Source of the DNA: Chiloscyllium plagiosum
Lineage: Eukaryota
Direction of reading: 5' to 3'
NCBI RefSeq assembly: GCF_004010195.1
Contig: NC_057719.1
Coordinates: 1,940,749-2,004,748 of the forward strand
DNA length: 64,000 bases
In this document: positions 4,785 through 64,000 of the stretch, in pieces
Layout of the letters: every line of letters begins with the position of its first letter
How positions within the stretch are numbered: position 1 is the first letter of the stretch
The notes under the pieces: generated by a model
Seen by the model: only the letters and a program-made list of their open reading frames with translations
Database searches by the model: none
Told to the model about the DNA's origin: nothing
Translations under genes and position numbers: made by a program

Positions 4785-5355
4785 TGTCATTGTGTCTCAG
4801 TCAGTCTTGCCTCTGAATCGGAAGGTTATAGACTCAACTTCCACAACAGACACCTGAGCACAACAGCTTGAGGTACTGTCTTTACATTAAACTGAGACCC
4901 TATCTGCCCTCTCAGCTGGATGTAAACAAATTCCTGATGAAGGGCTTTTGCCCGAAAAGTGGACTCTCCTGCTCCTCGGATGCTGCCTGACCTGCTGTGC
5001 TTTTCCAGCACCACACTCTCGACTCTGATCTCCAGCATCTGCAGTCCTCACTTTCTCCTGGACGTAAACAAACCCATGGCCACTATATCAACGAGGTGCA
5101 GGGGTGTTCTGCCTGCTGCCATTGGCCCATCAATACAATTACAACAACAGCCAAGATGTCTCGGTCATTATTACATTGCTGTTTGTTGGCTGCCCCAATT
5201 TATAGAATCTTTGAATTATACAGTACAGAAGAGGCCCTTCAGTCCATCAAGTCTGTACCAACATTTCAGCATACACACCAGTGGTACACTGTGACTGTAC
5301 AACACTTTGACAACTCCCTGAGGTTCTGTAAGATGCTATAGAGATGCATTCTTTC
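4785..5355 (+). mobile_element. Deu-domain-like SINE (SacSINE1/AmnSINE1-like), degenerate; partial copies at ~1085-1290 (-), 22925-23085, 24250-24380 (-), 39225-39760 (-), 54285-54460, 63320-63485
   Basis: Motifs tctgccctctcag.tggatgtaaa.a.cccatggc, tcattatcacattgctgtttgtggg and gctatataaatgcaag, recalled as Deu-SINE core/tail. Confidence 0.55.
4931..5057 (+). mobile_element. Solo 127-bp Penelope-type pLTR insertion with 15-bp TSD
   Basis: Starts ttcCTGATGA. Flanked by ctggatgtaaacaaa (4916-4930) and ctggacgtaaacaaa (5058-5072). Inserted into a SINE. Confidence 0.85.
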
Positions 5356-7884
5356 TTTGTTTATTACAGTGGATGCTTATTTATTCACCAGGAACAGTAC
5401 AATTTATTAAACTGTTCCTAACCTCAATGGGTTGTTTGTTCATGACTGGATGCTTTGGCACTTCCCTTATGTTGTAAAGTATCTTACTTGTTGAATTGTG
5501 CACCAACCTTGGCTGATCTTAGGGTTAACAAGCCACAGTGCAGCACACAGGGTTACCATTGCGTGATCAGCTTTGCCCTCTGTTAACTGATTTGACCAGT
5601 ACAGGTATGACAGATGGGCCTGAATGTCACTGGGCTTAGAAAAGGAGAAAATAACAAACATTACCTAAACCTGCTGTCTATTGAAGAGAGGATGTGGGTG
5701 AAATGTAAAGCTTTCTGTTGCTGGCTGCCTGTTTAATCTGTATTCAGGTTTAATGGTGGTGCAGGGATGTTTTTGAGACAATTTATTCTTGAGGAGAGTG
5801 GAAGTATTTTCCTTTCAGTGTGTTGCTTACATAATCTCACCTTCAGGTTGGGACATGCAGGAGACAGCAGTTGTATTTCGATCAGTAAAAGCAGGGGTCA
5901 TTCATACTCATTGAACTCTGCTTCCTTCAGAAGGACAACAGTGCACAGATCACATTTCAGGCAGTTATCAGCCACTTTCATGCAATCCAGTTAGATTGAA
6001 TATCTTTCTTTGCTTTCCTTATTTCATTATACATTGTTAATGCATTTATAATCTCTCTTTCATCCACTCTCCCTTTCTGTCTGTGTATCTCTAATCCCTC
6101 AGCTCCTTCTGTCGTTGTCTTTTACCCCACTGCCTCTGTATCCAACCATGCCTATTTGTTTCAGACATCTCAGTCTATCTGTTTCTTGCTGCCTGTGTGA
6201 GTGACTGCAGAGCTGTTCACCAACGGGAGCTCTTACTTTAAGATGAAAATAGCAACAGGTAAGAACGTAGAAACACTCCCCCCCCCCCCCCCACCTCCTC
6301 ACTGGCCTCACGAAACCTTAGCATTCGCAACGTTTTTTTTGATCATATTAGCAAAAGCGGAAGACTTTCAGCCTTCTACAGCCACTCCTCTCTCTTATCA
6401 GTAACTGTACACCCAACAAAGAGATTTGCATTCTGTATAACTCACAGAAGGGCTGCCAACAGCAGCTTGCCTGCAGAGTTAATGGTTATACAGCTTTTTG
6501 GCATTAGGTCAGAAGGCTACTCAGCAAACAGTGAGTGAGTGAGCCAGGGAGGGACAATTCCGGTGAGCACTTGATGCTGTCAGCTTCAGGTGGGATGGAG
6601 AGGTGGCCTGACGCTAACTTTTGGCAGTCAGTATAGAGTTCCCGGTCTCCCACTCCACTGTCGACACAGGCTTTTTATGTGCAGCATTTTTGCTGATTGA
6701 TGGTGGAAGCCAGGCAGCTCCTGAGAGTGGGCTTTCCTTCAGGCACAGCAACACTGTCAGTCACAGATCAGAAAAATGTGGCGTGTGGAATGTATGATGT
6801 GGGTTCAAGGGCAATGATATCAGCTCCAAACCTTCAACATTAATCCTTTTCATATTTCTCACCTCACCTGAACCCAAATAGTTCCAAAATGTAAAACGTG
6901 GATGTCCACCTTATTTATGCACAAAAGCAATAGATGATCATATCATATCACACGTGGTCTACAGCTCAGAAGAGGGCCCTTCAGCCCACCCAGTCTGCGC
7001 TGGACAAGAAGAACTGTTCTCATCCTGTTTTGTAGCTCTTCAGGCAGGATCTGGACTCACCGTCGATTAATGCTTCACCCTGAGTCATTTTCTTGGTGAT
7101 TTTTGTCAGGGGCACTTTGCCTATGTCTTCCACTGCCAGAGCCAGGATGAGGAGACAGCTACCTGGTTTACCTCAGCCAGAGTGGGAATCAAACTTACAC
7201 TGTTCCCAAGTACACACTAAGCACCTAGTGAGCAGCTGCCTTGTTACCTGAAAATAAACCAACAAATGCTGAAGATCACAGGTGGATCAGACAGCATCCA
7301 TGGGGAGAGAGCAAGCTAATGTTTCCAGTCTGAAGGCACCTTTGGTTGCTGGTGGTGGGAATGATGGTAGTGGATTGCGCTACAGGTGGTGTAACAGGGA
7401 GGCAAGTTATTGCTGGACTGTTAATCCAGAGATCCAGATAGTGTTCTGGGGACTCAGGTACAAATCCTGCCATGGCAGAGGGGTTCAATAAATAATATGG
7501 AATTAAGAGTCCTATGATGACTATGAATACATTGACAATTGTTCGAAAAATTCATCCAGTCCATTAATGCCCTTTAGGGAAGGAAACTGTCATCCTTACC
7601 TGGTCTGCCCTATATGTGACTCCAGACCCACAACAATATGGTTGACTCTTAACTGCATTCTGGGCGTTTAGGGGTGGGCAATAAATGCTGGCCTTGTTAA
7701 CAATGCCCTTATCCCTTGAATGAATTTTTAAAAAGGCTCCAAAACCTAATTAGATAAAAATGTTCTCAATCACACTTTATTGTTGCCATTTAAGCATGAA
7801 ATTCATAATGTGTGGAATATTTTTCTTCAGTCTTATAACAAAGTCATTTCCGGAAAGGCTGATATTTATGACTCATACTTAATA

Positions 7885-8185
7885 GAATCATAGACCCCAA
7901 TGGAATCTGCACCAACCCTCACCCAGCCCCCCAACTGATCTATGTAACCCTGCATTTACCCTGGCTACCCCACCGAGCCCCTCAATCCCTGAACACGGTG
8001 GACAATTTAGCATGGCCAATCCACCGCTGTGGACTGTGGGAGGAAACCAGAGCACCTGGTGGAAGCTAGGCAGACTCAGGGAGATCATGCAAACCCCACA
8101 CAGACAGTCACCTGAGAGTGGAATCAAACGCAGGTCTCCGGCACTGTGAGAAAGCAGTGCTAACCACTAAGCCACCGTGCCACCT
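7885..8185 (-). mobile_element. tRNA-derived V-SINE (HE1-like), older copy
   Basis: Reverse complement begins gtggcacggtggcttagtggttagcactgc and carries the V-domain. Confidence 0.8.
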
Positions 8186-10384: not shown

Positions 10385-10960
10385 ATTCCAACTCAGGAAT
10401 ATATATTTACCACTAATAGGTTGCTGTGGCCAAGTACAAAGATGTTCTATCTATAACACAAATAGGTAATGTGATATGTGAATTTGAGTGCTGGTATGAT
10501 GCCAAGTATGTCGGGCACACATCCCATTGGTTCACAATAAGCAAGATACTGACTGTACCCAATCAGTCTGCACTTGCAAAACTCTACCCATGTCCAACAT
10601 TCGATGAATTCCACAATTGGACAATATTTGTTAAATAATACTCAGTCATTAAGAATTACACTGACAACTAATTAAAATTAACAAAAAAAAAGAAAGAATT
10701 GTGGATGCTGGAAATCAGAAACAGAAACAGAAATTGCTGGAAAACTCAGCAGGTCTGGCAGCATCTGTGGAGAGAAATCAGAGTTAATATTGTGGGTCAA
10801 ATGAAGCTTCCTCAGAACTGCTTAGGATTGTCAGTCAGGCTGTTAGTATGACACGTGTGCATGTATTGGAAGCTACACAGATTAATACACAGGGCTCTGG
10901 TGCTTTGCAGAGAGCAAGGGCATGTACACACATCGTGACTCAACTCAACAAGATAGGTGA
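10385..10960 (+). mobile_element. Old degenerate Penelope-like GIY-YIG fragment, interrupted by a pLTR-type element at ~10690-10820
   Basis: KDVLSITQIGNVICEFECWYDAKYVGHTS resembles PLE GIY-YIG 'KD.L....SNVVY.F.C.C...YVG.TS'. Confidence 0.6.
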
Positions 10961-12221: not shown

Positions 12222-12352
12222 GTTCCTGATGAAGAGAATATGCTCGAAACATTGAATTCTTCTGCTCCTTAAATTCTGCCAGACCAGCTGTGCTTTACTA
12301 GCACCATACTCTTTGACTCTGATCTCCAGCTCTTACATTACTCACTTTCTCC
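12222..12352 (+). mobile_element. Solo pLTR copy (GGGC family, degenerate); further copies at 12551-12645 (+), 25360-25445 (+), 27330-27422 (-)
   Basis: Share the ctgatgaagggc..gcccgaaac...gctgcctgacctgctgtgcttttccagcaccacactctc consensus. Confidence 0.78.
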
Positions 12353-12354
12353 AA

Positions 12355-13700
12355 ATTTATTGACATGTCAGGAATTTGTGTCTCATTCCTGGATGCCAAG
12401 ATCCCTGTCTAACAAAAGTTTCTGCAATCTTTCTCCATTTAAATGATATACTGCTTTATATTATTTTTGCCAAAATAGACAAGTTCTCATTCTTCCACAT
12501 TGTACTTCAGCTGTCATTTTTTTCCTCAATCGTTAACCTGACTAACTCTATTCCTGATGAAGGGCTTTTGCCCGAAGCGTCGATTCTCCTGCTCCTCCGA
12601 TGCTGATTGACCTGCTGTGCTTTTCCAGCAACACACTCTCATGTCTAATTCTACAGGATTGTACACTTTCCCTTTCAGTTTGATCCAATTGTTAACTTCT
12701 TTAGTTAACCAGGAATTGTGTGCCCCTCTGGTAGAATCTTGCTTTCTGAACCGACTTTACTTTTGCTGAAAAGCATGGAATATCTCCTTAGATATCTGCC
12801 ACTGTTTCATGAAATGTTGTGTTTGCTATTGCTGAGAGCTTCCTTTATTTTGAGTTTATTCGTTAATCTTGTCTCACCGCATATTACCAGGTCTAATATA
12901 GTCTGTGCTCTGGTTACCTTTGTCAATCTGAGTTGCCCCAATCAATGTGTTGATTAAAATCGCTCATGATTATTGCAGTACCTTTCTTATTATCGTCCAT
13001 TATGCCGTTGTGTGTGTTCTGTCCCAGAGTGTAGTTATTGTTAGGGATCTGTAAATGAACTCTTACCTTTGCCATTTCTTATCCTAATCCAAATTGATTC
13101 TGTTTCTTGATCTTCTGAACTTTGCTATGCTAATGCCAGCCTTAATGAACAGAATTATTATCCTGCTTTTATCAAGCTTCTTGTACTTATTGTTCTTGTC
13201 CAAAATGTTAAATAGCTATGAATATTTTGCTGGAGGAGAAAGTGAGGTCTGCAGATGCTGGAGATCATGCTAATGCTAGCCTTAATGAACAGAATTATTA
13301 TCCTGCTTTTATCAAGCTTCTTGTACTTATTGTTCTTGTCCAAAATGTTAAATAGCCTTGAATATTTCGCTCCCAGCTTAGTCACCTTGCAACCACATCT
13401 CTGTAATCATATCATTCATATTTATTTCTATTCGTGCTAAAGATTCAACCATTTTAATACCAATGCTGCCTGCATTCAGATACAGGGCCTCTAATTCTGA
13501 CTTGTTACTATTCTTGCAACCTCTGGCCTCATCTGCTGTTCTCTTGAGCATCTCTGCTCTGTCCATACCTACCATACTTTAGCTATCATTTGTTACATCA
13601 GTTCCCTGTTCTATTGCCTTTTGCTTTCTCTCAATTTTACCGTCTGTTCATCTGATCCATGGCCCCACCCTATTTAACGTAAAGCTCTATATACCGTGTA
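12355..13700 (-). mobile_element. Degenerate CR1 ORF2 5' region (AP endonuclease start)
   Basis: LEALYLNAGSIGIK...IEINMNDMITEMWLQGD at 13378-13500 resembles CR1 EN 'LYLNARSI.NK...I.ITETWL'. Confidence 0.7.
13127..13371. repeat. 105-bp direct duplication (13127-13231 / 13267-13371) flanking a 35-nt pLTR tip
   Basis: Near-identical copies separated by ggaggagaaagtgaggtctgcagatgctggagatc. Confidence 0.9.
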
Positions 13701-14545: not shown

Positions 14546-15694
14546 TGAAGAATGATGTTAGGGAACAGAAAACGAAAGAACTGTGAATGCTGGAAATCAG
14601 AAACAAAATCAGCAATTGCTGGATAAACTCAGCAGGTCTGGCAGCATCTGTGGAGAGAAAACATTAACTCTACTTTCTTCCACAGATGCTGCCAGACCTG
14701 CTGAGTTTATCCAGCAATTTTTGATGCAAGGGAACGGAGTAGTTTTACTAGGAGATAAGCAGGGATGTGGGACTCACTAATGAAGATATGTTAGGACTGT
14801 TCCCCTGTGATCCATAACTGAATAGACATTTTCAGGAAGATAGATTTTGTTAGGTGGAGGAGCATCTTGAGGAGTAGATCTGTAACTCGCAGTCTTAGAT
14901 TTAAAGCCATTGGGAAAATAAATGAAGGTAAATGAGCAATATTTCTACTTGGGATTGTTGGGATCTGGAGTGATCTAAGATCACAGAATTGTTATAGTAC
15001 AAAAGGAGGCCATTCTGCCCACCATACCCACACTGACTCATTAGATGAGCATCATTAGCTAGTGCCAATCTCTTGCCTTTTGTCCATACCCTTGCAGATA
15101 ATTTTTATCCAAATATTCATCAGAAGCCCCCCCCCCGCCCCATCTTCAGTGCCCCTTAGCTGATGCTGGACTAAGCTTGGTTGCCTGTTTTAGGTCAGTA
15201 CAGGTAGTAAGGGCCAAATTTTAATTCATTCAGGGGATGTGGACATCGCCGGCTGACCAAGAATTTATTGCCCGTCCCTAGTTGCCTCTTGAGGTGGGGG
15301 TGAGCTGCCTTCTTGAACCGCTGCTGTCCAAATGCTATAGGTAGACCCACAATGCCTTGAGGGAGGGAATTCCAGGATTTTGACCCAGTGACACTGAAGG
15401 AATAGGTTCTATCTGTGATGTAGTTTCAATGATAATACCCAATGCTCGGATAGTAAGGCAATCTGGAACTGATCTTTACAGTCGATTTAAAAAATCTTAA
15501 TTCTCTCCCTTTCAAATTCTTAAGATTATGAAAGCGTAGATATCGGCATGATGTATTCAACTGGGGATAGTCAACAAAATCCAGCAGGAGAGTTAGACAA
15601 CCCCTCTTTACCCAAGAATGGTGTGAAGGTGCAATGTCCTGTCACAAGCAGCTGTAGAGATGACTAGCATAGATACGTTGGTATACCATATAGA

Positions 15695-16748: not shown

Positions 16749-17291
16749 TAAATTCAATGCAAGGTATTGGCTTTATTGTGGAGCTTTTTCCTTTCATCTG
16801 AAGGAATGTTTTAACAAGCGTGCAGGCACAGAGACATCTTGTGCGTACACAAATGTCTAAAGGTGACAGGACAAGTTGATGAGACTGTTTAAAAATAAAC
16901 CGCACTGGATATTTATCTTTATAAATAGAGGAATGAAGTGAAAAAGCAAATAGGCTATTTTAAATTTTTATAAATCAGGTTACTTCTCCTGTCTTTCTTT
17001 CCTCTCTCTGCCTCATCCTCTTCTGTTTCCCTCACTCTCATTTTCATGCTGCCTCGCAAGATTCTCGCCATGAGGAAAGCATGAAAGATGGAGCAGGATG
17101 GTCTTGATGTCGAGTTGGGGCTCACTATACTGCCACCTTATGCAGCCACATCCCTGAAGCCCCTACGAGATTCCACCCACAGTCTTGAACCCCCCCACCC
17201 CCAGCCAGGCTGCTCCCTCTGGTGAATCTATTAAGTTGTGTTAGAAACTAAGATTAAGCAATGAAACTTGACACTTCCCTCCACAGTGTAG

Positions 17292-17795
17292 ATCAGAGTG
17301 GTGCTGGAAAAGCACAACAGGTCAGGCAGCATCCGAGGAGCAGGAAAATTGACGTTTCAGGCAAAAGCCCTTCATCAGGACTGGAGGCAGGGAGCCTCCA
17401 GGGTGGAGAGATAAATGGGAGGGGGGGTGGGGATGAAGGTGATAGGTCAGAGAGGAGAGGGTGGAGCGGATAAGTGGGAAGGAAGAGAGGCCGGTAGGAC
17501 AGGTCATGGAGACGGTGCTGAGCTGGATGGTTGGAATTGGGGTGAAGTGGGGGAAGGGGAAATGAGGAAACTGGTGAAATCCACATTGATGCCCTGGGGT
17601 TGAAGTGTTCCGAGGCGGAGGATGACATGTTCTTCCTCCAGGCGTCGGGTGGTGAGGGAGCGGCGGTGAAGGAGGCCCAGGACCTCCATGTCCTCAGCAG
17701 AGTGGGAGGGGGAGTTGAAATGTTGGACCACGGGGCAGTGTGGTTGATTAGTGCGGGTGTCCCGGAGATGTTGCCTAAAGCGCTCTGCTAGGAGG
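17292..17795 (-). mobile_element. Penelope-like element (Neptune-like) 3' fragment: GIY-YIG C-terminus plus terminal repeat with hammerhead
   Basis: Minus-strand peptide LAERFRQHLRDTR...VVQHFNSPSHS..DMEVLGL...RRLEEEHVILRLGTLQPQGIN, followed by the pLTR (CTGATGAAGGGCTTTTGCCTGAAACGTC...gctgcctgacctg). Confidence 0.85.
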
Positions 17796-18214
17796 TCATT
17801 ATTCATTGTTAAACGCCTTGTTAACACCACAGCTTTCCTCATTAATATTCACACTCCCATCCTACCAAACTCACCAAACATTAGGACATCTGGTCGGCAT
17901 GGATGAGTTGGACTAAAGGGTTCCTGTGCTGTATGTCTCTATGACTCTATAAGGGAGACAACAGGAAGATTTGACAAAGAAACCAGAGCAAGTAGCTGGT
18001 GGATTCAGCATGGCACTTACCCAAATGACCTCCGTGTTGGACAGCAGGGGTAGTGGGGTGGTGGGGGGGGGAGAGGTTGTCATCCAGAGTCAGGACACCC
18101 TAGCTTCAAATTGGGGTAGCAGTGTATGACCACAGCTGGCCCATGGGCACCCCATATACCACGGTCCATGTGGGAAGGATAGGAACTGTAGGCACAGGTA
18201 CACAGGTTAAGAGG

Positions 18215-19970
18215 TCAAGGGATATGGGTGTCACTGGCTGGCCAGCATTTATTCCTTATCCCTAGTTGCCCCTTGAGAAGGTGGGGGTGAGCTACCTCCT
18301 TGAACCGCTGCAGTCCATGTGCTGCATTTAGACCCATAATGCCCTTCGGGAGGGGATTCCAGGATTTTGATTCAGTGACACTGAAGGAATGGCGATATAT
18401 TTCCAAGTCAGAATGGTGAGTAACTCAGAGGGGAACTTGCAGGGGGTGGTGTTCCCATGTATCTGCTGCCCTTGTCCTTCTAAATGGAAGTGGTCATATG
18501 TTTAGAAGGTGCTGTCTGAGGATCTTTGGTGAGTTTCTGCAGTGCATCTTGTAGATGGTACACACTGCTGTTACTGAGCGTCGGTGGTGGAGGGAGTGGA
18601 TGTGATGCCAATAAAGCGGGGGTTGCTTTGTCCTGGATGGTGTCAAGCTTCATGAGTGATGTTGGAGCTGTACCCATCCAGGCAAGTGGGGAGTATTCCA
18701 TCACACTCCTGAATTGTGCTTTGATAGGCTTTGGGGAGTCAGGAGGGGAGTTACTCGTAGCAATACTCCTAACATCTGACCTGCTCTTGCACTCACTGTA
18801 TTTTCTGGCTAATACAGTTCGGTTTCTGATCAGATGTAACGTCTGGATGTTAGTAGTGGGGGATTCAGTGATGATAAAATCATTCAATGTCAAGGGGTGG
18901 TGGCTAGATTATCTCTGATTGGAGATGGTCATTGCCTGCCACAAATATTATTTTCCATTTGTCAGCCCAAGCCTGGATATTGTCCTGATCTTGTAATATT
19001 TGAATATGTATCTGAGGAATTGCAAATGGTGCTGAACACTGTGCTGTCATCAGTGAACATTCCCACTTCTGACCTTATGATGGAGGGAAGGTCAATGATG
19101 AAGCAGCTGAAGATGTTGAGCCAAGATACTACCCTGAGGAACTCCTGCAGAGATGTCCTGGAGCTGACCTCCAACAACCACGACCATCTTCCTGTCTATC
19201 AGACATGACTCCAACCAGCAGAGAGTTTTCCCCCGATACCCATTGATGCCAGTTTTGCTAGGACTCCTTGATGCCACATTTGATTCAATCCAGCCTTGAT
19301 GTCTAGGGCAGTCCCTCTCCCCTCCCCTCTGGAATTCCGCTCTTTTGTCCATGTTTGAGCCAAGGCTGTAATGAGGTCAGGAGCTGAGTGACCCTGGGGG
19401 AACCCAAACTGGGCGTCACTGAGCAGGTTATTGCTGAGCAGGTGCTGCTTGATAGCACTGTTGGTGACCCCTTCCATCACTTTACTGATGACCGAGAGTA
19501 GACTGATGGGGCAGTAATTGGCCGGGTTGGAATTGTCCTGCTTTTTATGTACAGGATATACCTGGGCAATTTTCCACATTTCTGATGAAGGGCTTTTGCC
19601 CGAAACATCGACTCTCCAGCTCCTCAGATGCTGCCTGACCTGCTGTGCTTTTCCAACACCACACTCTCAACTCTTATCTCCAGCATCTGCAGTCCTCACT
19701 TTTGCCTAATTTTCCACATTGTCAGGTAGATGTCAGGGTTGTAACTGTACTGGGTGCTTGGCTAGGAGCGTGGCAAGTTCTGGAGCTCAAATCTTTAGTA
19801 CTATTGCTGGAATGTTATCAGGGCCCATAGTCTTTGCAGTATCCTGTGTTTCTTGATATCATGGGGGATGAATTGATTTGGCTGAAGACTGGTGTCTGTG
19901 ATACTGGGGAGCACTGCTGGAGACTGAGATAGATCATCCACTTGTCATTTCTGACTGAAGATTGCTGAAT
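18215..19970 (-). mobile_element. Non-LTR retrotransposon (CR1/L2-group LINE, second family), degenerate RT + 3' tail
   Basis: WKIAQVYPVHKKQDNSNPANYCPISLLSVISKVMEG, QFGF, ISAGVPQGS and GMFTDD motifs, with frameshifts. Confidence 0.88.
19581..19707 (+). mobile_element. Solo 127-bp Penelope-type pLTR insertion with 13-bp TSD
   Basis: Starts tCTGATGA. aattttccacatt at 19568-19580 and 19708-19720. Interrupts the minus-strand LINE. Confidence 0.88.
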
Positions 19971-24300: not shown

Positions 24301-25540
24301 ACGACTAACAAACTACTTTTGAATTCTAGTCGCTGTTTTAATGTGGGTAACATGACTGCCAATTGGCATGCAACAGTTCCCATGGGAAACCATTACAAGG
24401 AGCCTCGCGAGAACAGTATAAGTAAGCAATGAGTGACACTAAACCAAAGAAGAGAACACTTGACCAGGACACCAACAGACTTGGTCAGATACAGCCTGTG
24501 GAGAGTTAAAGGATGTGGGAGTTTGAGGTTGGACTTCCAGTGCATTGAGCCAATCCCGGCTGCAAAGAGCAGGATGGAGAGGGCCTCACGGACTGGAGCA
24601 GTTCTAGGGTCTCAGGCTTGTAGAGCTGGAGAGGGGTTACTGACGTAATCAGGGGAGAGGCCATGGAGAACGTGGTAGCAAATATTATCAATGTTATAGA
24701 TGATAAAGGCAGCTTAAAGACAAAGCTAATAATCGCAGAATAATTGAGCCTACGTGGTGGAAGGAAGCTGTTTGGCCCGTCAGGCTGTGTGCTGACTCTT
24801 TGAAAGAGCAGTCCTGCTTGGTCAAACACCCTCTGTAGGTTCCTTGCCCTCAAGTAGCGACCCAACTCCCTTTTAAAAATATTGATGGATTCAGCTTCCA
24901 CCACCTTTTCAAGTAATGTTCTAAATTCAAGAAACCTTCTGAGGGTAAGCATCACTCCCCCACCAGAAAAATGGCCAATGGTTTTGTCTTCCTGACTTCT
25001 GGTTGTTCACCTATTCACCAAACCTGTCATCAGTTTTCAAATCTCCATTAGATCAATCCTCTTTGTTCCCCAAGGAGAGCAGTCTCAACCTTTCTGACAT
25101 CTTCTCATCACTGAATAACTCCCATCATGGTGAATCTCTTCTGTTCCCTTTCTGATGCAGTTGCATTTCTCCTGAAGTGTCGAGCCCAGAATTGTCCACC
25201 ATATTGCAGCTGAAGCCAAACCAGTGATTATTTTAATATTTCTAGCATAATCTCTTTTTTATTCTGTCTTGCTCCACTTGGGAGCAGATACTGATATCAA
25301 AGTCCCGCTGTGCTTTGGATCATCACAAAAGTTAAGGATTAAATCAGATTATTCAAGGTCTTCATCAGGAAGGGCTTATGCCCGAAACATCAGTTTTGCT
25401 GTTGCTTTGATACTGTGCTTTTCTAGCACCACACTCTCGACACTAACTATTCTGTCTCGCAGTCAATAGTTTGAGGCAGCAGCTGGTAGATAAATAGTGA
25501 GTGAGAATAGCGAGCTATCTTCCAATACTTTGTTGCTTGC

Positions 25541-25700
25541 AAGGTTTGTGAAGGTTTGTAGCTCAGGTTGAGGTTTAGGGTGTGGGTTTGCTCGCTGAGC
25601 TGTAGGTTTGATATCCAGACGTTTCATTACCTGGCTAGGTAACATCATCAGTGGCGACCTCCAAGTGAAGCAAAGCTGTTGTCTCCTGCTTTCTATTTAT
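25541..25700 (-). mobile_element. Penelope-like 3' terminal fragment related to the 29752 family
   Basis: Shares the aaggtttgtga.gatttgtagctc terminus and an equivalently placed hammerhead with the 29752 element. Confidence 0.7.
25615..25654 (-). ncRNA. Minimal type-I hammerhead ribozyme motif (intact core)
   Basis: Minus strand reads CCA-CUGAUGA-U-GUUACCU(AGCC)AGGUAAU-GAAAC-GUC-UGG: stem I CCA/UGG, 7-bp stem II, full core, GUC cleavage triplet. Confidence 0.8.
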
Positions 25701-26270: not shown

Positions 26271-26426
26271 GGAGGAGAAACTGAGGACTGCAGATGCTGG
26301 AGTACCAGAGTTGAAAAATGTGGTGCTGGAAAAACACAGCAGGCCAGGCAGCATCCGAGGAGCAGGAATCCTGAAGAAGGGCTTATGCCCGAAACATTGA
26401 TTCTCCTGCTCCTTGGATGCTGCCTG
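26271..26426. mobile_element. Fold-back pLTR insertion with 14-bp TSD
   Basis: ccttacaggaacac at 26257-26270 and 26427-26440. Inverted arms aggcagcatccgaggagcagga / tcctgctccttggatgctgcct around a hammerhead core at 26371. Confidence 0.85.
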
Positions 26427-26696
26427 CCTTACAGGAACACATCTGATTGTCAAAGGAAAGTTCCAAACTTTAGATTAAAATTTGTGTAGGGATGGGGGAG
26501 GAGGTGGGGTTAGAGGTGGAGTTGATGCATTTCAGGTCCTGTGATACCCATGGTTGTTTTCGGCATACCAATGGAAGGATTTGTGTACATAGGCATTGGA
26601 GTCTCTCTACTCATCAGCACGTTCACAAAATTGTGTGCTTCTCCGGAGGGGCAGTGTAATGAATATTGTTTTTTTTCTCTCCTTTTTCTATCTCAG

Positions 26697-29700: not shown

Positions 29701-29824
29701 TTCCTGATACTGACCAGCACAGAAGTAAAACTTCTAAGAAATGCCCTGATCAAAGTTTGTGAGAAGATTTGTAGCTCGGGTGCTCGTTGCTGTGGTTCTG
29801 TTCACCGAGCTGGAAGTTTTTGTT

Positions 29825-29864
29825 GCAAACGTTTCGTCCCCTGTCTAGGTGACATCCTCAGTGC
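29825..29864 (-). ncRNA. Minimal hammerhead ribozyme motif in Penelope terminal repeat
   Basis: GCA-CUGAGGA-U-GUCACCU(AGAC)AGGGGAC-GAAAC-GUU-UGC, with palindromic AAACGUUU stem III region. Confidence 0.72.
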
Positions 29865-33079: not shown

Positions 33080-33094
33080 TAGAGAGAGCTTTAC

Positions 33095-39400: not shown

Positions 39401-39525
39401 AAGTTAAAAATCACACAACACCAGGTTATGGTCCAACAGGTTTAATTGGAAGCACACTAGCTTTCGGAGCGACGCTCCTTCATCAGGTGATAGTGGAGGG
39501 CTCGATCGGAACGCAGAATTTATAG
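39401..39525 (-). mobile_element. Solo 125-bp pLTR-type insertion (GGAGC hammerhead family) with 11-bp TSD
   Basis: tcctctgtttt at 39390-39400 and 39526-39536. Same sequence as the arms of the 55654 palindrome. Confidence 0.82.
39455..39489 (-). ncRNA. Minimal hammerhead ribozyme motif (GGAGC family)
   Basis: CAC-CUGAUGA-A-GGAGC(GUC)GCUCC-GAAAG-CUA-GUG: stem I CAC/GUG, stem II GGAGC/GCUCC, palindromic AGCU. Confidence 0.75.
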
Positions 39526-42500
39526 TCCTCTGTTTTGGGTTTTGTTTGAGGATACTGGAGAGAATTCCCCTGCTTCTTTTTGAGTGATGACCATCCATCC
39601 TCTGTACTCATGTATGAGGATAGATTAGCTCTTTAACATCTGACTGAAAAATGCACCTCCAAAATTACAGCACTCCTTTACTGTGTTGTATGTGACAGCT
39701 CAAATTATACACGTATTCGAGGCTCTGAAATGTGACTTGAGCTGATGACATTGCTACATGTGGCCAATACCGAATGAGAGGAGTTTCTGCAAGTCTTTGA
39801 CACCACATTTGAGACCATTCATTCAGCAGCTGCATCCCTCCTTTTCCCTCATCCATAGAACATAGAACATTACAGTGCAGTACAGGCCCTTCAGCCCTCG
39901 ATGTTGAGCCAACCTGTCATACCAATCTGAAGCCCATCTAACCTCCACTATTCCACTTTCATCCACATGTCTATCCAATGAGCACTTAAATGCCCTTAAA
40001 GTTGGTGAGTCTACTACTGTTGCAGGCACTGCGTTTCACACCCCACTACTCTCCGAGTAAAGAAACTACCTCTGACATCTGTCTGTTGGCCCACATTTCT
40101 CCTCATGTTCAAACATGCACCAAGTCCTGTTCACCTTTCAACTCTTTGTTGACCCATGGTGACCCCCATTCCAACAAAATGTCAATATTAAAAAATTCTT
40201 ATCCTTGTTTCCAAATGTCTGTGTGGCCTTGCCTTTCCCTATCAATGGAATCCCTTCCAACCTGACACCTGGCAGTGCACATTGCTGCAGCTCTGCCCAC
40301 TTGTATGTTCCTGGTTTTGCACACTGCATCATTGATGCCCATGCCTTGACCTGCTTGGGTCCTGAGCCCTGAGTTTCTCCTTTAAATCCTTCACCTCACT
40401 TTCTTCCTTTAAGATAGTCTTTAAAGCCCACGTCCTTGACAACCATTTTGTTATCTTTCCTGGTATCTCTTTATGTCACTTGGTATCACGTTTCTTTTAC
40501 TAATGTTCCTCTGAAGCTCCCTTACTTCATTAAAGATGCTGTGTACATGTAAGTTGTTATTGTTGCTGAGCATGCTGCTGAATGTCAGTCACTGAGACTT
40601 TGAGGTCGAACTCTTGAACGATTCAGGAGCTGTGGGGTGGGGGCGGGGGTGGTTGTAATTGATGTATGGTAAAATAAAAACGCAAGTCAGTTGCTACCCA
40701 CTGATTTTTAAAAGACTGCTGAAGGGCTATGGCCAGTTGAAGCCCTTGCCTCTCCCCACCCCTGTATGCAGCCATTGTAAACTCTGCTAACCGGGAACCT
40801 CTGTTCTTTCCGCGCTCTTTTTGTTAAAACCTTTTTTGCCTGTGCCACCTCCATGAGCCCTGCACAGCTGGCCTGGCATAAAGTGCAGGTTTTATAGTCA
40901 CTGCTTTCTGTCTACAAGATGGAACACGCCAGTGCAGTTAACCATCACAACCTGTCAGGCTTCAGTGGAAACATTTTGAATAATTGAGGGGGAAAGGCCG
41001 CCAAGTTTCTCACTGTGAAGCACTCTGTGCTAGTTATTTCTCAGCACCAGTCACACCGTGTCAATGGCATAAATATCAGTGCCTGTAGGAAATCTCCATA
41101 TGGGAGTGAGGGGCAGAGGGAATACATGGACACACTGGAGTGTTGGAGCAGGGAACTGTTATTACATGCCTCAAGCAAAGGGGAAATAGGTAGGAAGAGT
41201 TTGGGAGATCAGAGAGATGGGGCTGCACTTGGAAATTGGATGTGAATACAGGATCTGAGAGAGGGTCCAGTTAGGGGATATAATCCCTGCCAAAATAATC
41301 TAGAGGGGAGCCATTGTTTAATGATCAATCTTATTATTTCATTGAAATGTACAGAATGATTGACTCCACATAATCCTCGCTCGCCACTATGGAACTTTGA
41401 TTTTGTTTAGTTGCAGTATTGTCATTGGACTTTTTCTGCTTTCTGCAATTTTTAACAATTCATTGTTTACCTTCCCATTAATTAAATGTCACCAAGTGAT
41501 GGGACACCAGAGTGGCTCTCTGCACTCAATGTCTTCTCTTATGGCTTGGAATATGTAAACTATTATTCAGTAGGCTGAATTTTTATCTCCCTTTTTGGTT
41601 TTACCTCTCTCATTCTCGGTTTCTGTCTTTATCTCTCTCTCTTTCTGTCTTTCACTAGCTGTTCACATTTTCTGGCTCTCCCTGTCATTTCTTCCAACCT
41701 TTCTCTCTCTCACACACACACTCACTCTCTCTCTTGCTTTCAGTCTCTCACTTTGTCTCTGCCTCTCTGTTTATGTCTCCATGTCTCTGTCTCATCTCCT
41801 CTTTCTTTCCCTCACTTCCGTCTCTCTCTCTCTTTTGCCTTACCCATCTCTCGCTCCCTCCTTCTCTCAGTCTGTCTTGCACTGCCTGTCTCTGACTCTC
41901 ACCATTTAATAGATGCTAATATAAAGCCAGTATTCTTCTAAAACTTCCTCCCACCTCCCTTCTAAGCTTCAGTACACACTGTTCCTGCTCCCTGCAGTTC
42001 TGAATATCTGTCAAGCTGTATTCTAATTCATTCATTCCAAAGACTTCTCTTCCTCCTACACTCTCAAAAGCTTTCAGACTTCAAGCTTCACGATACCTAA
42101 TGCTCCTTGCAGAATGATGTCTGCATCTTTCCTCTTATTTTTGAAACTTGATGTGTGCCATTTAAACACAGAAAGCTACATCATGATGAGCGAGGAGGTA
42201 GCTCAGAGACTTGCAGGGCTCATCATTGATAATGACCAGATTTTGGAGAGACTGCCTGTATTTAAAATTGAAAAGGCACCAGAACTGGATGAGCTGTATC
42301 GGAGGATGACGAGGTTGGTGAGAATGGAAATTAATTGCCCTGGCAATAATCTTTCAGTCTTTTTCAGACTTGGGTGTGGCCAGAGGACTGGAGAATTGCA
42401 AATGTTGCATCCTTATTCAAAAAGATATAAAGCTGTGTACAGCAACTAGAGAAATGTTTAACCTCAGTGGTGGGGAAGTTTCTATAAATGATAATTTGGT

Positions 42501-48250: not shown

Positions 48251-48610
48251 GACAAAGAAAACCAAGGTACCAAAATGTAAAACACCATTAGCCAGATGTA
48301 AAATACAGAGGAAACAAAGTTTCCCAACACGATCCATTACAGAGATTCGAGTCCAGAGAAATTACACCCCACTTTCAACTCTTTAGAGCTCCACTAAACT
48401 TTCCAGATCTGAACTTGCAACATGAACGTCTCCTGAAATCTGAGTGTACAGTTTGTCAGGTCCCTAGTTTGGAATTTTCACAAACTTAGCCATACCACTG
48501 AGGTAATTAGCTCCTGAACTGCCCTAAACAACTTCTAGGAAAGAAGCTAAACTTGGTTTAAAACAAGCAACCCTGGTCCCATCTGAACGACACCTTACTT
48601 GTTTAACTGG

Positions 48611-49515
48611 GAGAAAGTGAGGACTGCAGGTGCTGGAGATCAGAGTCGAGAGTGTGTTGCTGAAAAAACGCAGCAGTTCAGGCAGCATCCGAGGAGCAGG
48701 AAAATTGACGTTTCGGGTATAAGCGCTTCATCAGCAATGAGGCTTGTGGGTCGGAGCTGAGAGACAAATGGGAGGGAGGGTGGGGTTGGGGGGAAGGTAG
48801 CTGAGAAAGCGATAGGTGGATGAAGGTGAGGGAGAAGATGATAGGTCAGAGGGGGGAGTGATGGACAGGTCTACATTTATCCCGTGTGGTTGCAGGGTAA
48901 ATCCGCATTTATACTGTGTGGTCCCAAGCCTCCATCTCGGTTTCCTCATTTCCCCTACCCCCACATTGTCCCAGTCACAAGCCTCCATCTCGGCACCGCC
49001 CGACATTGGCAGAGGTACAGGTGAATTTCTGAAGGACGTAGAAGGATCCCTTGGGGCCTTGGACGGAGGTGAGGGGAGTGGTGTGGGCGCAGGTTTTGCA
49101 TTTCCTGCAGTGGCAGAGAAAGGTGTCAGGAGTCTGGTGTGGGCTGGGGCGTGGACCTGACGAGGGAGTCGCGGAGGGAATGGTCTTTCCAGAACACTAA
49201 TAGGGGTGGGGAGGGAAATATATCTTTGGTGGTGGGGTCTGTTTGGAGGTGGAGGAAGTGGCAGGGATGATGCGTTGTATGCAGAGGTTGGTGGGGTGTA
49301 AGGTGAGGCCCAGGGGTGTTCTGTACTTGTTGCATTATGAGGGGTGGGGGTTCAAGGGCAGTGATGAGTGAGGTGTTAGAAATGCGCTGGAGGGCATTGT
49401 CAACCATGTGAGAAGGGACATTGTGATTGTGGAAGAAGGAGGCCATGTGGGGTTTTCTGAAGTGGAAGTGGTCATCCTGGGAACAGATGTGGTGGAGGCG
49501 GAGGAATTGGGAATA
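48611..49515 (-). mobile_element. Penelope-like element (same family as 17292) with RT thumb/linker remnant and terminal repeat
   Basis: Minus-strand YSQFLRLHHICSQDDHFH..MASFF..., DPTTKDIFPSPPLLVF.KDHSLRDSLVRS and RLGT/LQPHGINVD. pLTR at 48611-48735. Confidence 0.82.
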
Positions 49516-51991
49516 CATGTATAATTGTTGTAAACCTAATAACATAAGGGTATGAAAGCATAAGGGGAGGAGATGACATGGTGATACTGACACTGCAAGT
49601 AATGCAGAACGCCAAGTTATTGTTCCCGGGATACTGTGGCAGATGGTGAAATTAGAATTCAGTAAAAATCTGGAATAAAAAGCTTGCTGAATGATGACCA
49701 TGTGATTGCTGACAATTACTGTAAAACCCACTTGGTTCACTAATGAAATCCGCCATCCTTACCTGGTCTGGCTTCCATGGGAATCCAGACCCATAGCAAT
49801 GTGGCTGACTCGTAACTGCCCTCTGAGCAGTAAAGATAGATAGTAACTGCCTATCCAGCAACATCTACATCTCATGAATTTTTTTTTAAAAAATCAACAG
49901 CTTTAGGGAGAGACTGAACAGGCTGGGGCTGTTTTCCCTGGAGCACCGAAAGCTGAGGGGTGACCTTATAGAGGTTTATAAAATCATGAGGGACATGGAT
50001 AGGGTAAATGGACAAGGTCTTTTCCCTGGGACAAGGGTGTCCAAAACTAGAGGGGCATAGGTTTAGGATGACGGGGCAAAATTTAAAAGAGACCTAAGGG
50101 GTAACGTTTTCACGCAGAGGGTGGTGCGTGTATGGAATAAGCTGCCAGAGGAAGTGGTGGAGGCTGGTACAATTACAACATTTAAAAGGCATCTGGATGG
50201 GTATATGAATAGGAAAGGTTTAGAGGGATGTGGGCTGGCAAATGGGACTAGATTAATTTAGATTATCTGGTTGGCATGGACAAGTTGAACCGATAGATCT
50301 CTTTCTATACGGTACATCTCTGTGTCTTTCCCTAAACTCCACAGGGGTCTGCAGTCATCTGTTATCTGAGATTTCATTACTTCTGGGAGGACTCTCTGAC
50401 ATTTTGTAAAAGTAAGTCCTTCCCAGAAACACCTAACACCCATCTCCCTCTATTTTAAAATCTGAGTTCCAAAAATTTAACTTAATATGTATAAATACTG
50501 TACCTTCACACTAACACTCCGAACAGAATTTTCTTGATCTCATAGTGAGGTGTGTTTTGGCTTGAAGTAAATTTGTAGATGAAGGTGTCAGGTCAGTGTG
50601 CAGCCTGTTCCTGGTGATCTATCTGGAGGTGACCTAGCTGGAGGTAATCAGCAGTGGCAGGATAATCTGACCTGGCAGCAGCAGTTAGTTCAATAATCAT
50701 AACCTAATGAGGGGTGGCTCTGTATAGAATTAGGATGCTCTCTTTTGTAATCAGAAGTCAGGGCATAACTGGGAGAATGTTTTTGTCTCAGAGGGTTGTA
50801 TGAGTCAGGAATTTGCAGTCTCAGATGGTGAAGGAAGCGGGTCATTTAATTGATTAATACAGAGGTGGATAGATTCTTGGAGGTGCAGTTCTGAAAAAGG
50901 GTTACTGGACTCAAAACACGAATTCTGTTTCTCTCTTCCCAGACAGTGCCTGACCACCTGAGTTTATCCAGCAGTTTGTTTCTGTTTCAGATTTCCAGTA
51001 ATCGCAGTTTTTAAAAATTGTTTTATTGAAGATAATTTGTATAGAAGTTCAAACCAGCTTCATGGTTAGTCTTTATCCTATTCCTCAGTCGGATTGATGT
51101 GGAACTGACGGAGCTCATAGTTCTCTTTGCTGTTTGCAAACTTATGAAACTAGTAACATGAGTTGTTTCTCTGCAGGTACTTCTTGGTGAGGTGTTTCAG
51201 ACACCTCTAGGAGAATGGAACCTCAGAGGTAACAGTGACCTTACTCTTGTTCCTCATTGCCCAGGTTCCCAGCTTTACCTCTCACTTTGATGAGTTCCTG
51301 CAGGAAAATTGGAGAAGACCAAGATGTCTGATTAGGTGCAGTCCAATTTGGACTTAAGCATAGGTCTCTTCTCTGGCCTCTTGTCAGAAGCTTCTTTATG
51401 GGAGCCATGTCTGCACAAGATGGCAGAGTGAATATATTGTGGATAGATTCTTGCTAAGGACAGGAATCAAGGGTTATCTCAGGTAGATGGGAATGTGGAA
51501 TGGAAATACAGAACATCCGCCAAGAATTTTGAAATAACTCCACAGAGGAAGGTATCTGTCACTAAGTCACCCTTATTTGCACATGAGCAGTCCTTGACTT
51601 TAAATCTGCCTCATTCAGAGTCAGGTACCAGAGTATCAGGATCTCTGACACTCCCCTTTCTATCTGTCAGACAGGGTTCCCTGATTGGACCAGATTAACT
51701 GGCCCAAGTCAGGGAACTCGTATTTTATAAGAAAGAATAAAACATTTATTGAACAGGGAGTGCATGAACTAAATGACATTAGGCAAAATGAATGGTTTGA
51801 AAGATTTCATTACAGACATCGCAAATAGAATTTGGGAAAATTGTTTTTCACTCAGCAGCTATTGGGAATCTGGAATGGACTGTCTGGGAAGGTAGGGGAG
51901 GCCAGGCTCTTTAAATATCATTACATTCAAGTATATGGGACAAGTGCAGGAAATTGGGATTATTGCGCCTTTTAGTGGTAGTTATGTTGGT

Positions 51992-52162
51992 GCTGAAAAA
52001 TGTGTTGCTGGAAAAGCGCAGCAGGTCAGGCAGCATCCAAGGAGTAGGAGAATCGACGTTTCGGGCATAAGCCCTTCTTCAGGAACCTGCCTGACCTGCT
52101 GCGCTTTTCCAGCAACACATTTTTCAGCTCTGATCTCCAGCATCTGCAGTCCTCACTTTCTC
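51992..52162. mobile_element. Fold-back pLTR insertion with 14-bp TSD
   Basis: gtagttatgttggt at 51978-51991 and 52163-52176. Arms gctgaaaaatgtgttgctggaaaagcgcagcaggtcaggcag and its reverse complement. Confidence 0.88.
52051..52086 (-). ncRNA. Minimal hammerhead ribozyme motif (GGGC family)
   Basis: GUUC-CUGAAGA-A-GGGC(UUAU)GCCC-GAAAC-GUC-GAUU. Confidence 0.7.
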
Positions 52163-52930: not shown

Positions 52931-52937
52931 CCCTCAG

Positions 52938-55621: not shown

Positions 55622-55827
55622 ATCTGGAGGAGCCAGTGTTGGCCTAGGGCGACAAAGTTAAAAATCACACAACACCAGGTTATAGTCCAACAGGTTTATT
55701 TGGAAGCACTAGCTTTCTGAGCGCTGCTCCTTCATCAACCATCTGATGAAGGAGCGTCGCTCCGAAAGCTCGTGCTTCCAAATAAACCTGTTGGACTATA
55801 ACCTGGTGTTTTGTGATTTTTAACTTT
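55622..55827. mobile_element. Fold-back pLTR-type insertion with near-perfect 174-bp palindrome (55654-55827)
   Basis: aaagttaaaaatcacacaacaccaggttatagtccaacaggtttatttggaagcac... and its reverse complement. Probable TSD cttttcactcttg (55609-55621) / cttttgactcttg (55824-55836). Confidence 0.85.
55740..55774 (+). ncRNA. Minimal hammerhead ribozyme motif at the centre of a 174-bp palindrome
   Basis: CAU-CUGAUGA-A-GGAGC(GUC)GCUCC-GAAAG-CUC-GUG. Confidence 0.7.
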
Positions 55828-58905: not shown

Positions 58906-59429
58906 CAACAGCCACTCTCAGACAACTCACCAGAACGAAGGACCCGATACCCAGCATGAGCAAAACCAATGTAGTGTACAAAATCCCATGCAAGGACTGC
59001 ACAAAACACTACATAGGACAAACAGGAAGACAGCTAACGATCCGCATCCATGAACACCAACTAGCCACGAAACGACACGACCAGCTATCCTTAGGAGCCA
59101 CACATTCAGATGACAAGCAACATGAGTTCGACTGGGACAACACTACTATTATAGGACAAGCCAAACAGAGAATAGCCAAGGAATTCCTAGAGGCATGGCA
59201 CTCATCCACAGATTCAATCAATAAGCACATCGACCTGGGTCCAATATACCGGCCACTGCAGCGGACAGCTGGAACTGACAACCGGAAGCGGCAGATTCAA
59301 ACCACTATAAATGCCGGAGGAAAGATCACAGAAGCGCTTCACAGGAGGCTCCCAAGCACTGAGGATGTCACCTAGACAGGGGACAAAACTGCAACACAAA
59401 TTCCCAGCTCAGCGAACAGAACCACAACA
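58906..59429 (+). mobile_element. Penelope-like element 3' part: GIY-YIG endonuclease ORF plus terminal repeat
   Basis: ORF 58956-59375 NVVYKIPCKDCTKHYIGQTGRQLTIRIHEH...FLEAW..INKH shows VVY/YIG, CxxC and R..EH motifs. Followed by a degenerate hammerhead at about 59356-59392. Confidence 0.9.
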
Positions 59430-62350: not shown

Positions 62351-62941
62351 TTGGCCTGATCAGTGGGTAAATGACTCCAGGACAGTGTAGTTTTGACACT
62401 AGCTGACTGACAGGATTATTAATGCTGGCTGTGGACACTTTGCTGTCAATGTAGATGCTATCACAGACATCGTAAACAGGCCCTGCTAGTGTTCCTCAAC
62501 TAGTATTGTAAATTGATTTGTGTGTTATTATCTCGCTCTGCTGTTGAAAGGACAATTATTTATAAAAATTATTATCAGACACAGGATAATTCACGGAGTA
62601 ATACAAGCCCAGTGTCATAGCAGTGAAGTTGGGACTGAGAAACAGGGTCTGCTGTGATGGGCGAGTCTGTCCCTTTGATCCACTGCAGCTGCCCCCAGTT
62701 AGTGATTGCATCCAGTTTCTGCTGGACTGAGCAGTGAATGAAGCCAAATCTCTGACATACAACTTTACTCTAGAAAGGAAAATAGTGTTGAGAGATTTGG
62801 AGCGGGTGACTTCACCAAGTGTTCACAGGGCCAGGAAGATGTCTTTCACCTGGAATCAGACAGTACAGAAAAGGCCCTTTGGCCCATTGAGTCAGTACTG
62901 CTGCAGTCCATGTCTGTTTTGTCCTGGTCAGAATTTACCCC

Positions 62942-63155
62942 TCAGAGTCAAGAGAGTGGTGCTGGAAGGACACAGCAGGTCAGGCTGCATCCAAGGAGCA
63001 GGGGAATTGACGTTTCAGGCAGAAGTCCTTCATCAGGAGGGCTTAGGCCTGAAACATCGATTCTCCTGCGCCTTGGATGCTGCCTGACCTGCTGTGTCCT
63101 TCCAGCACCACTCTCTTGACTCTGATTTCCAGCATCTGCAATCCTCACTTTCTCC
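62942..63155. mobile_element. Fold-back pLTR insertion
   Basis: ~85-bp inverted arms (tcagagtcaagagagtggtgctggaaggacacagcaggtcagg...) meeting at cttcatcaggagggc. Confidence 0.85.
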
Positions 63156-64000
63156 TAGTGTTTAACCTGAACCAACATCACTTTAAGTTAATCAAATTAG
63201 TTCTGAAGAGCAAACTGTTAACTGTTTCTTTCTCTCCATAGATGTTGCCAGGCCTGCTAAGTTTCTCCAGGTGTGTGTGTCTGTGTGTGTGTGTGTGTGT
63301 GTGTGTCTATGTGTGTGTGTGTCACTTTCTTATATATCTATCATAACCTTGCTTTGTGGGGACTCATAATGTGAATTTGGTTTCTTTGTCCCAACAATGA
63401 CTAGACTTCATCACTCATTGGATGCAAACTGCTTTGGGACATCTTGGGATCACAAAAGGTGCTATATAAATGCAAGCTCTTCACTTTCTAATAGCTTAGA
63501 CTCTCCTTGAACATTGCTGGGGCCTGACCCAGTTTTCTGCCCAGGGTCAAACAGCTCCACTGAGGTGGAACAAGGGACGAATTGGTCACCTTGCAACCAT
63601 CGGTAAATGGCAGCCCGTGTCCCAGAGTGGGGGCAGATCCATGGAGGATGGGGCTGCCTCGCTAACACCTATTGGATCCTCTCAGAATAGGATCATATTC
63701 GACCATGAGCCACCTCTGGGCGATTAGCTTGCTGGCATCCATGCTCTTCACTTGTTTCTCAAGCGTGAACATGAATTAACCCAACTATTCAGGCAATAAT
63801 GTAGAGTTGGGGAGGGGTTTATGTGAGGGCGTCCAGAGAGGCGCTCTGATCCCTGCAGGGTTACCAGGAAATCTCGTCTGGCAGCAGGTGAAGGGAAGTT
63901 CCGAGGCAGCAGAAAGGGTTAACTGACAGCAGGAACGGGAGAAAGCTGTAAGTGAGAGCTTTCATGTTTCAGACATGTACAGCCCTGTTCCCTTACCAGA

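Follow-up and report, generated by a model that had tools for sequence, protein, structure and literature searches.

Hammerhead ribozymes in the terminal repeats of Penelope-like retroelements were published in 2014 (Cervera and De la Pena, PMC4209133), and motifs of this kind are described here from a 64,000-nucleotide stretch of the shark Chiloscyllium plagiosum (assembly GCF_004010195.1, contig NC_057719.1, positions 1,940,749 to 2,004,748; hereafter the window), which sits 1.94 Mb into a contig of 95.8 Mb in an assembly of 3.556 Gb. According to the parts of the 2014 paper covered, the metazoan Penelope hammerheads share with the shark motifs the core, an unpaired base after A9, the G10.1-C11.1 pair, a palindromic 15.2-16.2, a short helix I, and the occurrence of several families per genome, mostly as single dispersed copies. 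The published counts, about 4,000 in coelacanth and about 9,000 in Xenopus (the largest), stand against about 180,000-275,000 here, with descriptors and assemblies that also differ; the 4-bp helix II and 2-bp helix I of shark family A (defined below) are unlike the published motifs. No shark appeared among the hammerhead hosts in the main-text parts covered or in supplement file 2.

Four other systems are comparable, as far as the covered parts of the respective sources go. The anole Poseidon element PAc (Frangieh et al. 2024, PMC11167929) likewise has two internal reverse transcriptase (RT) start sites and an optional tail; cutting and extension take place on both strands, the RNA used as substrate is uncleaved, and no RNA ends are found at the cleavage site. 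PAc is Poseidon-type and was studied in vitro, whereas the stub route proposed here concerns mainly Neptune-type families, and start-site-bounded stubs, a cap-derived G and a one-tail rule are not addressed for PAc in the covered parts of that paper. Inverted pseudo-long terminal repeat (pseudo-LTR) insertions of endonuclease-bearing Penelope elements (PMC3846280, PMC8557442) share the head-to-head repeats, a one-sided tail of 30-40 bp, the target duplication, and TATA- and initiator-like motifs; the shark unit differs in its size of about 170-230 bp, its number (tens of thousands by extrapolation) and a duplication peak at 14-15 bp, and those papers favour self-priming or resolution over two primings. 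Twin priming of L1 (PMC11702581) shares a second priming event at the opposite DNA end, discrete duplications, junction microhomology and an extra G, but copies different parts of one RNA, whereas the two arms of a shark hairpin are copied from a single short leader, from two fixed start sites. Animal non-LTR retrozymes (bioRxiv 10.64898/2026.07.22.740005), reported from one chondrichthyan, share the type-I hammerhead and a Penelope origin; they are head-to-tail tandem units bounded by cleavage, in contrast to the shark copies, whose start lies upstream of the core and which occur as solo or head-to-head insertions. An expansion of Penelope elements in whale shark introns has also been described (bioRxiv 10.1101/443036). 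Shark hammerhead counts, start-site stubs and a Penelope cap G were not found in the literature covered, Repbase, Dfam and subscription journals lying outside the search.

Motif positions were counted from C3 of CUGANGA (=0), so that the predicted cleavage in family A falls before +28, and the families were labelled A (GGGC/GCCC), B (GGAGC/GCUCC), C (GUC.CCU/AGG.GAC), D (GUUACCU/AGGUAAU) and E (GGGUC/GACCC). A minimal descriptor (CUGANGA, an optional bulge of one base, a stem II of 3 bp or more and GAAA; then UH; then 15.2/16.2 pairing) was used, and the genome was sampled in 140 tiles of 10 kb, placed at round coordinates along its 40 largest contigs and totalling 1.335 Mb once N was excluded. 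Judged by sequence, all motif copies belong to Neptune- and Poseidon-type Penelope-like retroelements, and their membership of the Penelope-type minimal hammerheads is near certain whether the copies arose by two-ended priming or by fold-back of a cDNA. Two-ended priming on the capped, uncut leader RNA of such an element is considered the probable origin. Most family A stubs would be reverse transcripts of the first 90-130 bases of an element RNA that is still capped and has not been cut: the enzyme, probably a dimer, would nick both strands 14-15 bp apart, one cDNA would be begun at each of two internal start sites (about +90 and +126), and the two cDNAs, joined near the RNA 5′ end, would give a head-to-head hairpin, the survival of one cDNA only leaving a solo stub. 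Nearly every insertion would carry the motif because reverse transcription starts about 90 or 126 nt downstream of it and the RNA begins 4-8 nt upstream, and the high motif count would thus be a by-product of geometry. The ribozyme itself was probably selected in the source elements, with the dispersed copies as decaying passengers. Four bases would lie between the cap and the hammerhead, and with helix I formed by these first transcribed nucleotides, cleavage would remove the cap and not make a template. That two-ended priming is programmed in Neptune-type elements, with hammerhead cleavage as a cap-removing off-switch for the element mRNA, is put forward tentatively.

Most family A copies were stubs of 90-130 bp. 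The 133 family A tile cores with clean flanks comprised 60 in short head-to-head pairs, 37 long and 36 solo, and a stricter pass over 119 cores gave 48 head-to-head, 33 long and 38 solo; about 40-45% of family A copies are head-to-head hairpins. The two 3′ ends lay about 36 nt apart in all four family groups; in family A, the target duplications place them at about +90 and +126, and no copy extending past the tail was found. Of 94 solos, 43 end at the first 3′ site, which must therefore serve as an independent start site. Exactly one arm was tailed in 73 of 76 distinct family A hairpins (38 expected, p ~1e-18) and in 14 of 16 family B hairpins, in sets that include pattern-picked loci. Of the 76 hairpins, 46 were enclosed as a whole by a target duplication of at least 9 bp, most often 14-15 bp long (null 4.7%), and duplications of at least 8 bp were present in 22 of 70 solos (null 0.6%). 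Hairpin centres were heterogeneous, the largest shared junction accounting for at most 8 of 117 arm views; many junctions held spacers, with both arms reaching the start, and some hairpins had arms of different subfamily variants (55743/55738 in the window; locus L251). The hairpin rule holds for long arms too, because a long-armed head-to-head family A insertion with its axis about 200 nt upstream of the motif (L162, 7370-8030) has one tail and a 15-bp duplication. Families were also found joined. At L069 (about 1500, minus strand), an inverted family A arm is fused directly to a family B hammerhead at the common core, which suggests cross-family template switching or a mixed two-RNA insertion; at L055 (about 1500, minus strand), a family A element lies tail to tail with the 3′ end of a family B copy, possibly because the end of one family was targeted by another.

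The 5′ ends were determined for 241 of 244 family A arms anchored solely on +44..+90. At least 40 nt of upstream sequence was retained in 44; 13 ended at -39..-9, 63 at -8..-2 (36 of these at -4/-3), 72 at -1..+24, 9 at +25..+31 (2 at +28) and 22 at +32..+44, bins which sum to 223 and leave 18 of the 241 rows unaccounted for. The putative start site was represented by 36 ends at -4/-3 and the cleavage site by 2 at +28; no excess at +28 was found among the 241 arms, a number too small to exclude one in hairpin arms. The family base at -4 was kept in 43 of 56 solos and lost at -5. This edge base is the A of TCATTC in family A or of TCAGTT in family E, and some 30 nt upstream of it stands TTTAT or ATAT/ATAAA; these sequences fit the initiator and TATA consensus. 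Family B has a TATA box at -38 and its edge at -8, although its helix I is 3 bp. TATA- and initiator-like motifs have been noted in rotifer Penelope repeats (PMC3846280), and Drosophila Penelope has an internal promoter without TATA (PMC2377424). The 5′ edge would then be the RNA start, and a G found next to it the copied cap.

None of 60 long family A copies carried G at -5. Genome-wide, with G excluded at -6, the base before ATTC was G in 3,197 cases and A in 1,374 (background ratio 0.64), and the G excess over background was about 3.0-fold after T, 4.2-fold after A and 3.4-fold after C, as estimated by eye from the first 100 matches listed for each. Two bases upstream, the control gave 229 G against 606 A, an A count inflated by palindromic junctions, and in the cleanest (T) context the control ratio was about 1.0 against 1.21. 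Thirty G loci comprised 16 solo, 14 hairpin and 0 long copies, and thirty A loci 13 solo, 14 hairpin and 3 long. At -9 in family B, G was found 2,178 times and A 333 times, counts partly confounded by partner arms. An extra G at full-length L1 5′ junctions has been ascribed to capped RNA (PMC11702581); in the shark, an additional C at the cDNA 3′ end would either pair with a G of the target or be joined without such pairing.

The core was invariant in 11 of 11 columns over four family A subfamilies, while 23 of 41 upstream columns varied; core and stem II columns remained invariant as promoter columns changed, which is consistent with selection in the source elements. Of 103 rows, 54 were dropped on account of hairpins before this column comparison, and 6 further partner arms before the private-change test. 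Better conservation of the core than of its flanks was supported at first (p 0.001), with flanks that contain subfamily differences, and less so in the stricter test, in which private changes numbered 10 in 388 core sites (17 expected base-matched) against 142 in 3,011 flank sites (p 0.066).

Several observations weigh against two-ended priming on capped RNA, or against parts of it. The G lay outside the target duplication in 3 of 12 G-bearing solos with a clear duplication and inside it in 9, where it is target-derived and related to the cap only indirectly; the -5 base in 40 unselected solos was C in 18, T in 10, G in 9 and A in 3, C being the commonest; and hairpin junctions confound the G counts in test and control alike, most of all in family B. 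In the 773 motif reads of one single-cell RNA run, the two strands were about equally represented, 95% of reads extended into flanking sequence, and RNA 5′ ends did not accumulate at the motif, while a second RNA run yielded no such reads; 56 reads with loose ends at -4 reflect genomic stubs inside longer transcripts and not RNA starts. No full-length element was recovered from the genome loci by all-against-all extension, in which overlapping loci gave artefacts. The stub route is not general, because 44 of 50 copies of the Poseidon-type families C and D were long. Private core changes were fewer than expected, and neutral decay of the copies is not proven. Hairpin arms were usually of the same subfamily (median 9% apart vs 22% for random pairs), a resemblance explained equally well by fold-back of a single cDNA.

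This fold-back explanation keeps the same elements and start site and derives each hairpin from one tail-started cDNA that folds back at its 3′ end, copies itself as far as the first site and is resolved there by the endonuclease; in a variant, which has been suggested for rotifer elements, the template is antisense and primes itself. It accounts for one tail per hairpin and for arms that share rare variants (L281, L245, L271), and both self-priming (PMC3846280) and endonuclease-mediated tail resolution (PMC8557442) are published proposals. We nevertheless regard it as unlikely, given the many solos that end at the first site, the discordant arms of some hairpins, the junctions with spacers and both arms reaching the start, and the extension of both strands by the anole protein in vitro (PMC11167929). 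The 5′ edge could instead be ascribed to stalling of the reverse transcriptase at the hammerhead fold or to a splice junction, inasmuch as the family A edge falls on the 5′ strand of helix I and a Drosophila intron ends at helix I (PMC4209133); this is hardly credible, because the enzyme meets the fold from its 3′ side while the ends peak beyond the fold, family B has its edge at -8 with a 3-bp helix I, the solos have no common upstream exon and no AG before the edge, and G is in excess there. Independent amplification of stubs and hairpins as non-autonomous elements (retrozyme-, SINE- or MITE-like) would suit their uniform size, target duplications and very high number, and animal retrozymes do derive from Penelope repeats (bioRxiv 10.64898/2026.07.22.740005). 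It is very improbable, since no hairpin junction is widely shared, the TATA-like box lies outside the stubs and is hence absent from them, the window holds no tandem arrays of the motif, and subfamily variants are common to stubs and to long endonuclease-bearing copies. MITE-like unit amplification was rejected on the heterogeneous junction offsets, and a non-LTR retrozyme on the lack of a head-to-tail array in the window; the shortest same-strand motif spacings in the tiles were 334 and 721 bp.

The remaining possibility, that the dispersed motifs are working ribozymes which cut host pre-mRNA as dimers or with the help of protein and are kept by selection, gains from a density of about 63 motifs per Mb with core, UH and palindrome, from the presence of copies among RNA reads from this or a closely related species, from core changes slightly below expectation, and from the cleavage of the anole motif in the presence of protein (PMC11167929). 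It is nonetheless thought quite improbable. The descriptor failed at 7 of 21 window sites, and the core was kept by 29 of 43 flank-anchored long copies, with the palindrome in 23. Helix I was 2 bp in 44 of the 84 intact tile motifs and shorter in 14, so that 58 have 2 bp or less; an intact same-strand partner lay within 4 kb of only 16 of the 84, and 22 of 79 were inside short hairpins. Monomers folded to stem II only, none reaching the full hammerhead, and two co-folded monomer copies did not form a double hammerhead in the energy model; hairpin insertions folded at z ~ -12. Low activity in vitro has been reported (PMC4209133), no read ends piled up at the cleavage site in the one RNA run (a weak test), and the ends of the copies point to uncut templates. 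Self-cleavage of the dispersed motifs is a prediction from their sequence. Two-ended priming retains the preference, and the counts favour sense, capped, uncleaved templates over models of cleavage and circularization or of antisense self-priming.

The identity of the source elements was traced through coding remains. GIY-YIG-type frames stop just upstream of motifs 59359+ and 29861- (Pfam matches weak and below cut-off), a C-terminal endonuclease fragment without a Pfam match lies upstream of 17378-, and long copies in other genome loci contain remains of thumb, linker and endonuclease. A CX4CX2C linker is clear in family A (L135, L282), and family E (L032) has a decayed two-cysteine remnant resembling it; a family D copy read through the linker (L096) has no zinc-finger linker before GIY-YIG, no linker was seen in the family B copies, and family C is placed beside D by similarity. 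Under the rule of PMC8557442, in its covered parts, that a CX2-5CXXC linker between RT and endonuclease marks Neptune and its absence Penelope/Poseidon, families A and E are therefore putatively Neptune-type (Nematis being a possible alternative), B is uncertain, and C and D are probably Penelope/Poseidon-type by linker rule and similarity. The family A endonuclease frame had 17 relatives, including proteins of about 890 aa with RT and GIY-YIG domains (PF00078 and PF01541); the closest to its endonuclease region were from three carpet sharks (72, 58 and 56% identity), which indirectly supports a shark origin. A Protein Data Bank sequence search with the GIY-YIG frame gave 0 matches, the endonuclease fragments of families A and C showed no similarity to each other when compared pairwise, and a Pfam search of 16 frames matched none of the A, B and E fragments and gave RT matches in two CR1-like frames only. 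In family B (L178, L055, L278), a long CA-rich microsatellite lies between the endonuclease frame and the promoter.

About 20 hammerheads from about five families had been reported for the window in the first-pass annotation. All 21 listed sites exist, at most about 40 bases from where they had been placed, and the number stands for recognisable copies; as intact ribozymes it does not, since 14 of 21 passed for core and stem II, 13 kept UH as well, and 9 also kept the palindromic 15.2/16.2 helix III. Thirty shuffles of the window gave means of 0.43, 0.13 and 0.10, respectively. The sites are not all independent, several being arms of head-to-head insertions; partner arms 55738- and 63031+, fragment 25364+ and a core-less hairpin (14608-14725) had been overlooked. 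The five families were confirmed, and two further ones occur in genome tiles (L041, L119, L177, L218; and L202, L209). Covariation of the stems round a fixed core was likewise upheld, with compensatory stem I, II and III pairs in the tabulated family majorities: helix I is CG-TA in A (only 2 bp, then a T-T mismatch), CG-AT-CG in B, AT-CG-GC in C and TA-TA-GC-AT in E, and helix III is CG or GC. These majorities have the unpaired base after A9, the G10.1-C11.1 pair and the palindromic 15.2-16.2, in agreement with the proposed identity as minimal type-I hammerheads of Penelope-like pseudo-LTRs; the palindrome was retained in 84 of 108 tile motifs, with CA or TG in many copies from CpG decay. The suggestion that the genome holds a very large, diverse ribozyme population at a density typified by the window was correct as to number and excessive otherwise: diversity is modest (family A accounts for 77 of 108 tile motifs, and the remainder are eight singletons and the members of five smaller clusters), motif density in the window exceeds that in the tiles about 2.5-fold (13 in 62.5 kb vs 81 per Mb), a third of its sites lack the core, and there is no sign of a working population.

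The genome-wide number was estimated in two ways. Exact core patterns, which end at 15.2 and so do not include UH, matched the whole assembly 70,526 times for A, 13,389 times for B and 3,804 + 10,336 times for C/D (two patterns together, so as to include the N7=G variant), in total 98,055, against 0 matches for reversed-pattern controls. The descriptor found 108 motifs with UH in the tiles (80.9 per Mb, bootstrap 64-100; three shuffles gave 0-2) and 84 with UH and palindrome (62.9 per Mb). Extrapolation by length gave 213,000-274,000 intact motifs and by exact-pattern ratio 180,000-231,000. By these extrapolations, the shark genome has about 180,000-275,000 intact motifs, a scale which is the new part; the observation is real, ordinary in kind and unusual in number.

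Twelve family A features lie in the window (C3 positions in brackets). Solo stubs with a tail are at 4930..5063 (plus strand; 4934, UH lost yet core and stem II kept, 9-bp target duplication) and 19578..19707 (plus; 19582, 12-bp target duplication; CpG decay has destroyed the palindrome of helix III), and one without a tail at 12550..12640 (plus; 12554, A15.1 mutated). Decayed solo stubs are at 12223..12352 (plus; 12226, core and UH present, helix III non-palindromic) and 27328..27423 (minus; 27420, stem II mismatch), and a fragment lacking the start of the core at 25364..25444 (plus). The long copies are at 17285..17848 (minus, ends approximate; 17378, intact core, C-terminal endonuclease remains, TATA-like and initiator-like sites) and 48610..49758 (minus, upstream end approximate; 48734, decayed, stem II broken by mismatch, thumb and linker remains upstream). 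Head-to-head insertions are at 26271..26430 (plus; 26371, 10-bp target duplication), 31133..31330 (minus; 31262, intact core), 51992..52161 (minus; 52082, intact core, a tail on one arm, 14-bp target duplication) and 62942..63159 (arms 63036-, intact core, and 63031+, core start lost).

Family B is represented by a copy from TATA box to first 3′ end at 39401..39526 (minus; 39486, intact core, target duplication of 8 bp by script and 11 bp by eye) and a head-to-head insertion at 55622..55827 (ends approximate; arms 55743+, intact, and 55738-, with differing loop II variants). The Poseidon-type family D copy is at 25540..25700 (minus, upstream end approximate; 25651, intact core, TATA-like box, tail). 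Family C, also Poseidon-type, has a head-to-head insertion at 29752..30600 with arms 29861- (tail) and 30528+ (no tail), GIY-YIG remains, one shared 12-bp target duplication and an assembly gap inside it (30286-30425), and a copy at 58917..59429 (plus; 59359) whose GIY-YIG frame runs into the motif and in which G12 and UH are lost. Family E solo stubs with decayed core or stem are at 10687..10819 (minus; 10815, with tail), 27901..27997 (minus; 27994) and 50885..51012 (plus; 50891); these three, with 12554, 59359, 27420 and 48734, are the seven listed sites that fail the descriptor by mutation. Head-to-head insertions of family E are at 32853..33078 (minus; 32951, core and UH present, 14-bp target duplication) and 14569..14725 (no hammerhead core, one tailed arm, no strand assigned).

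Tandem repeats of 33 bp (15698-16747, about 32 copies, 91% matches), 44 bp (60535-62350, about 42 copies) and 69 bp (34560-34895, about 5 copies) are also present in the window; because pieces related to the last flank the 32951 hairpin, it seems to have been inserted into this repeat type. LINE-type RT frame fragments, probably CR1-like, lie at 33015-33788, 43205-44086, 57478-57950, 19199-19666 and 45225-45785, the two Pfam-matched frames carrying RVT_1. A 140-codon open frame at 42027-42449 has no confident Pfam match and might contain a host exon, and a weak Gag_p10 match at 20765-21253 (E 0.014, below cut-off) is probably due to chance. No hammerhead family was matched in an Rfam scan of the window at E up to 5; weak microRNA matches below gathering thresholds fell on hairpin insertions (precursor-like matches at 14616-14717, 55694-55787, 62971-63095 and 52003-52126). 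Many perfect hairpins mimic microRNA precursors, and such insertions probably lead to spurious microRNA annotations in sharks.

For ribozyme surveys, the results serve as a warning that motif counts in sharks would mirror insertion geometry and not function, in a window where Rfam is silent. In the covered literature, the insertion route of Penelope elements, the head-to-head repeats with a one-sided tail and the role of the hammerhead are open questions, and hundreds of thousands of copies turn questions of Penelope insertion into counting problems, with exact sites offered for a test in vitro (-4 or -8, about +90 and +126, and a stagger of 14-15 bp). If the proposed route is true, the shark genome would be the richest known store of hammerheads and a record of several hundred thousand insertion reactions.

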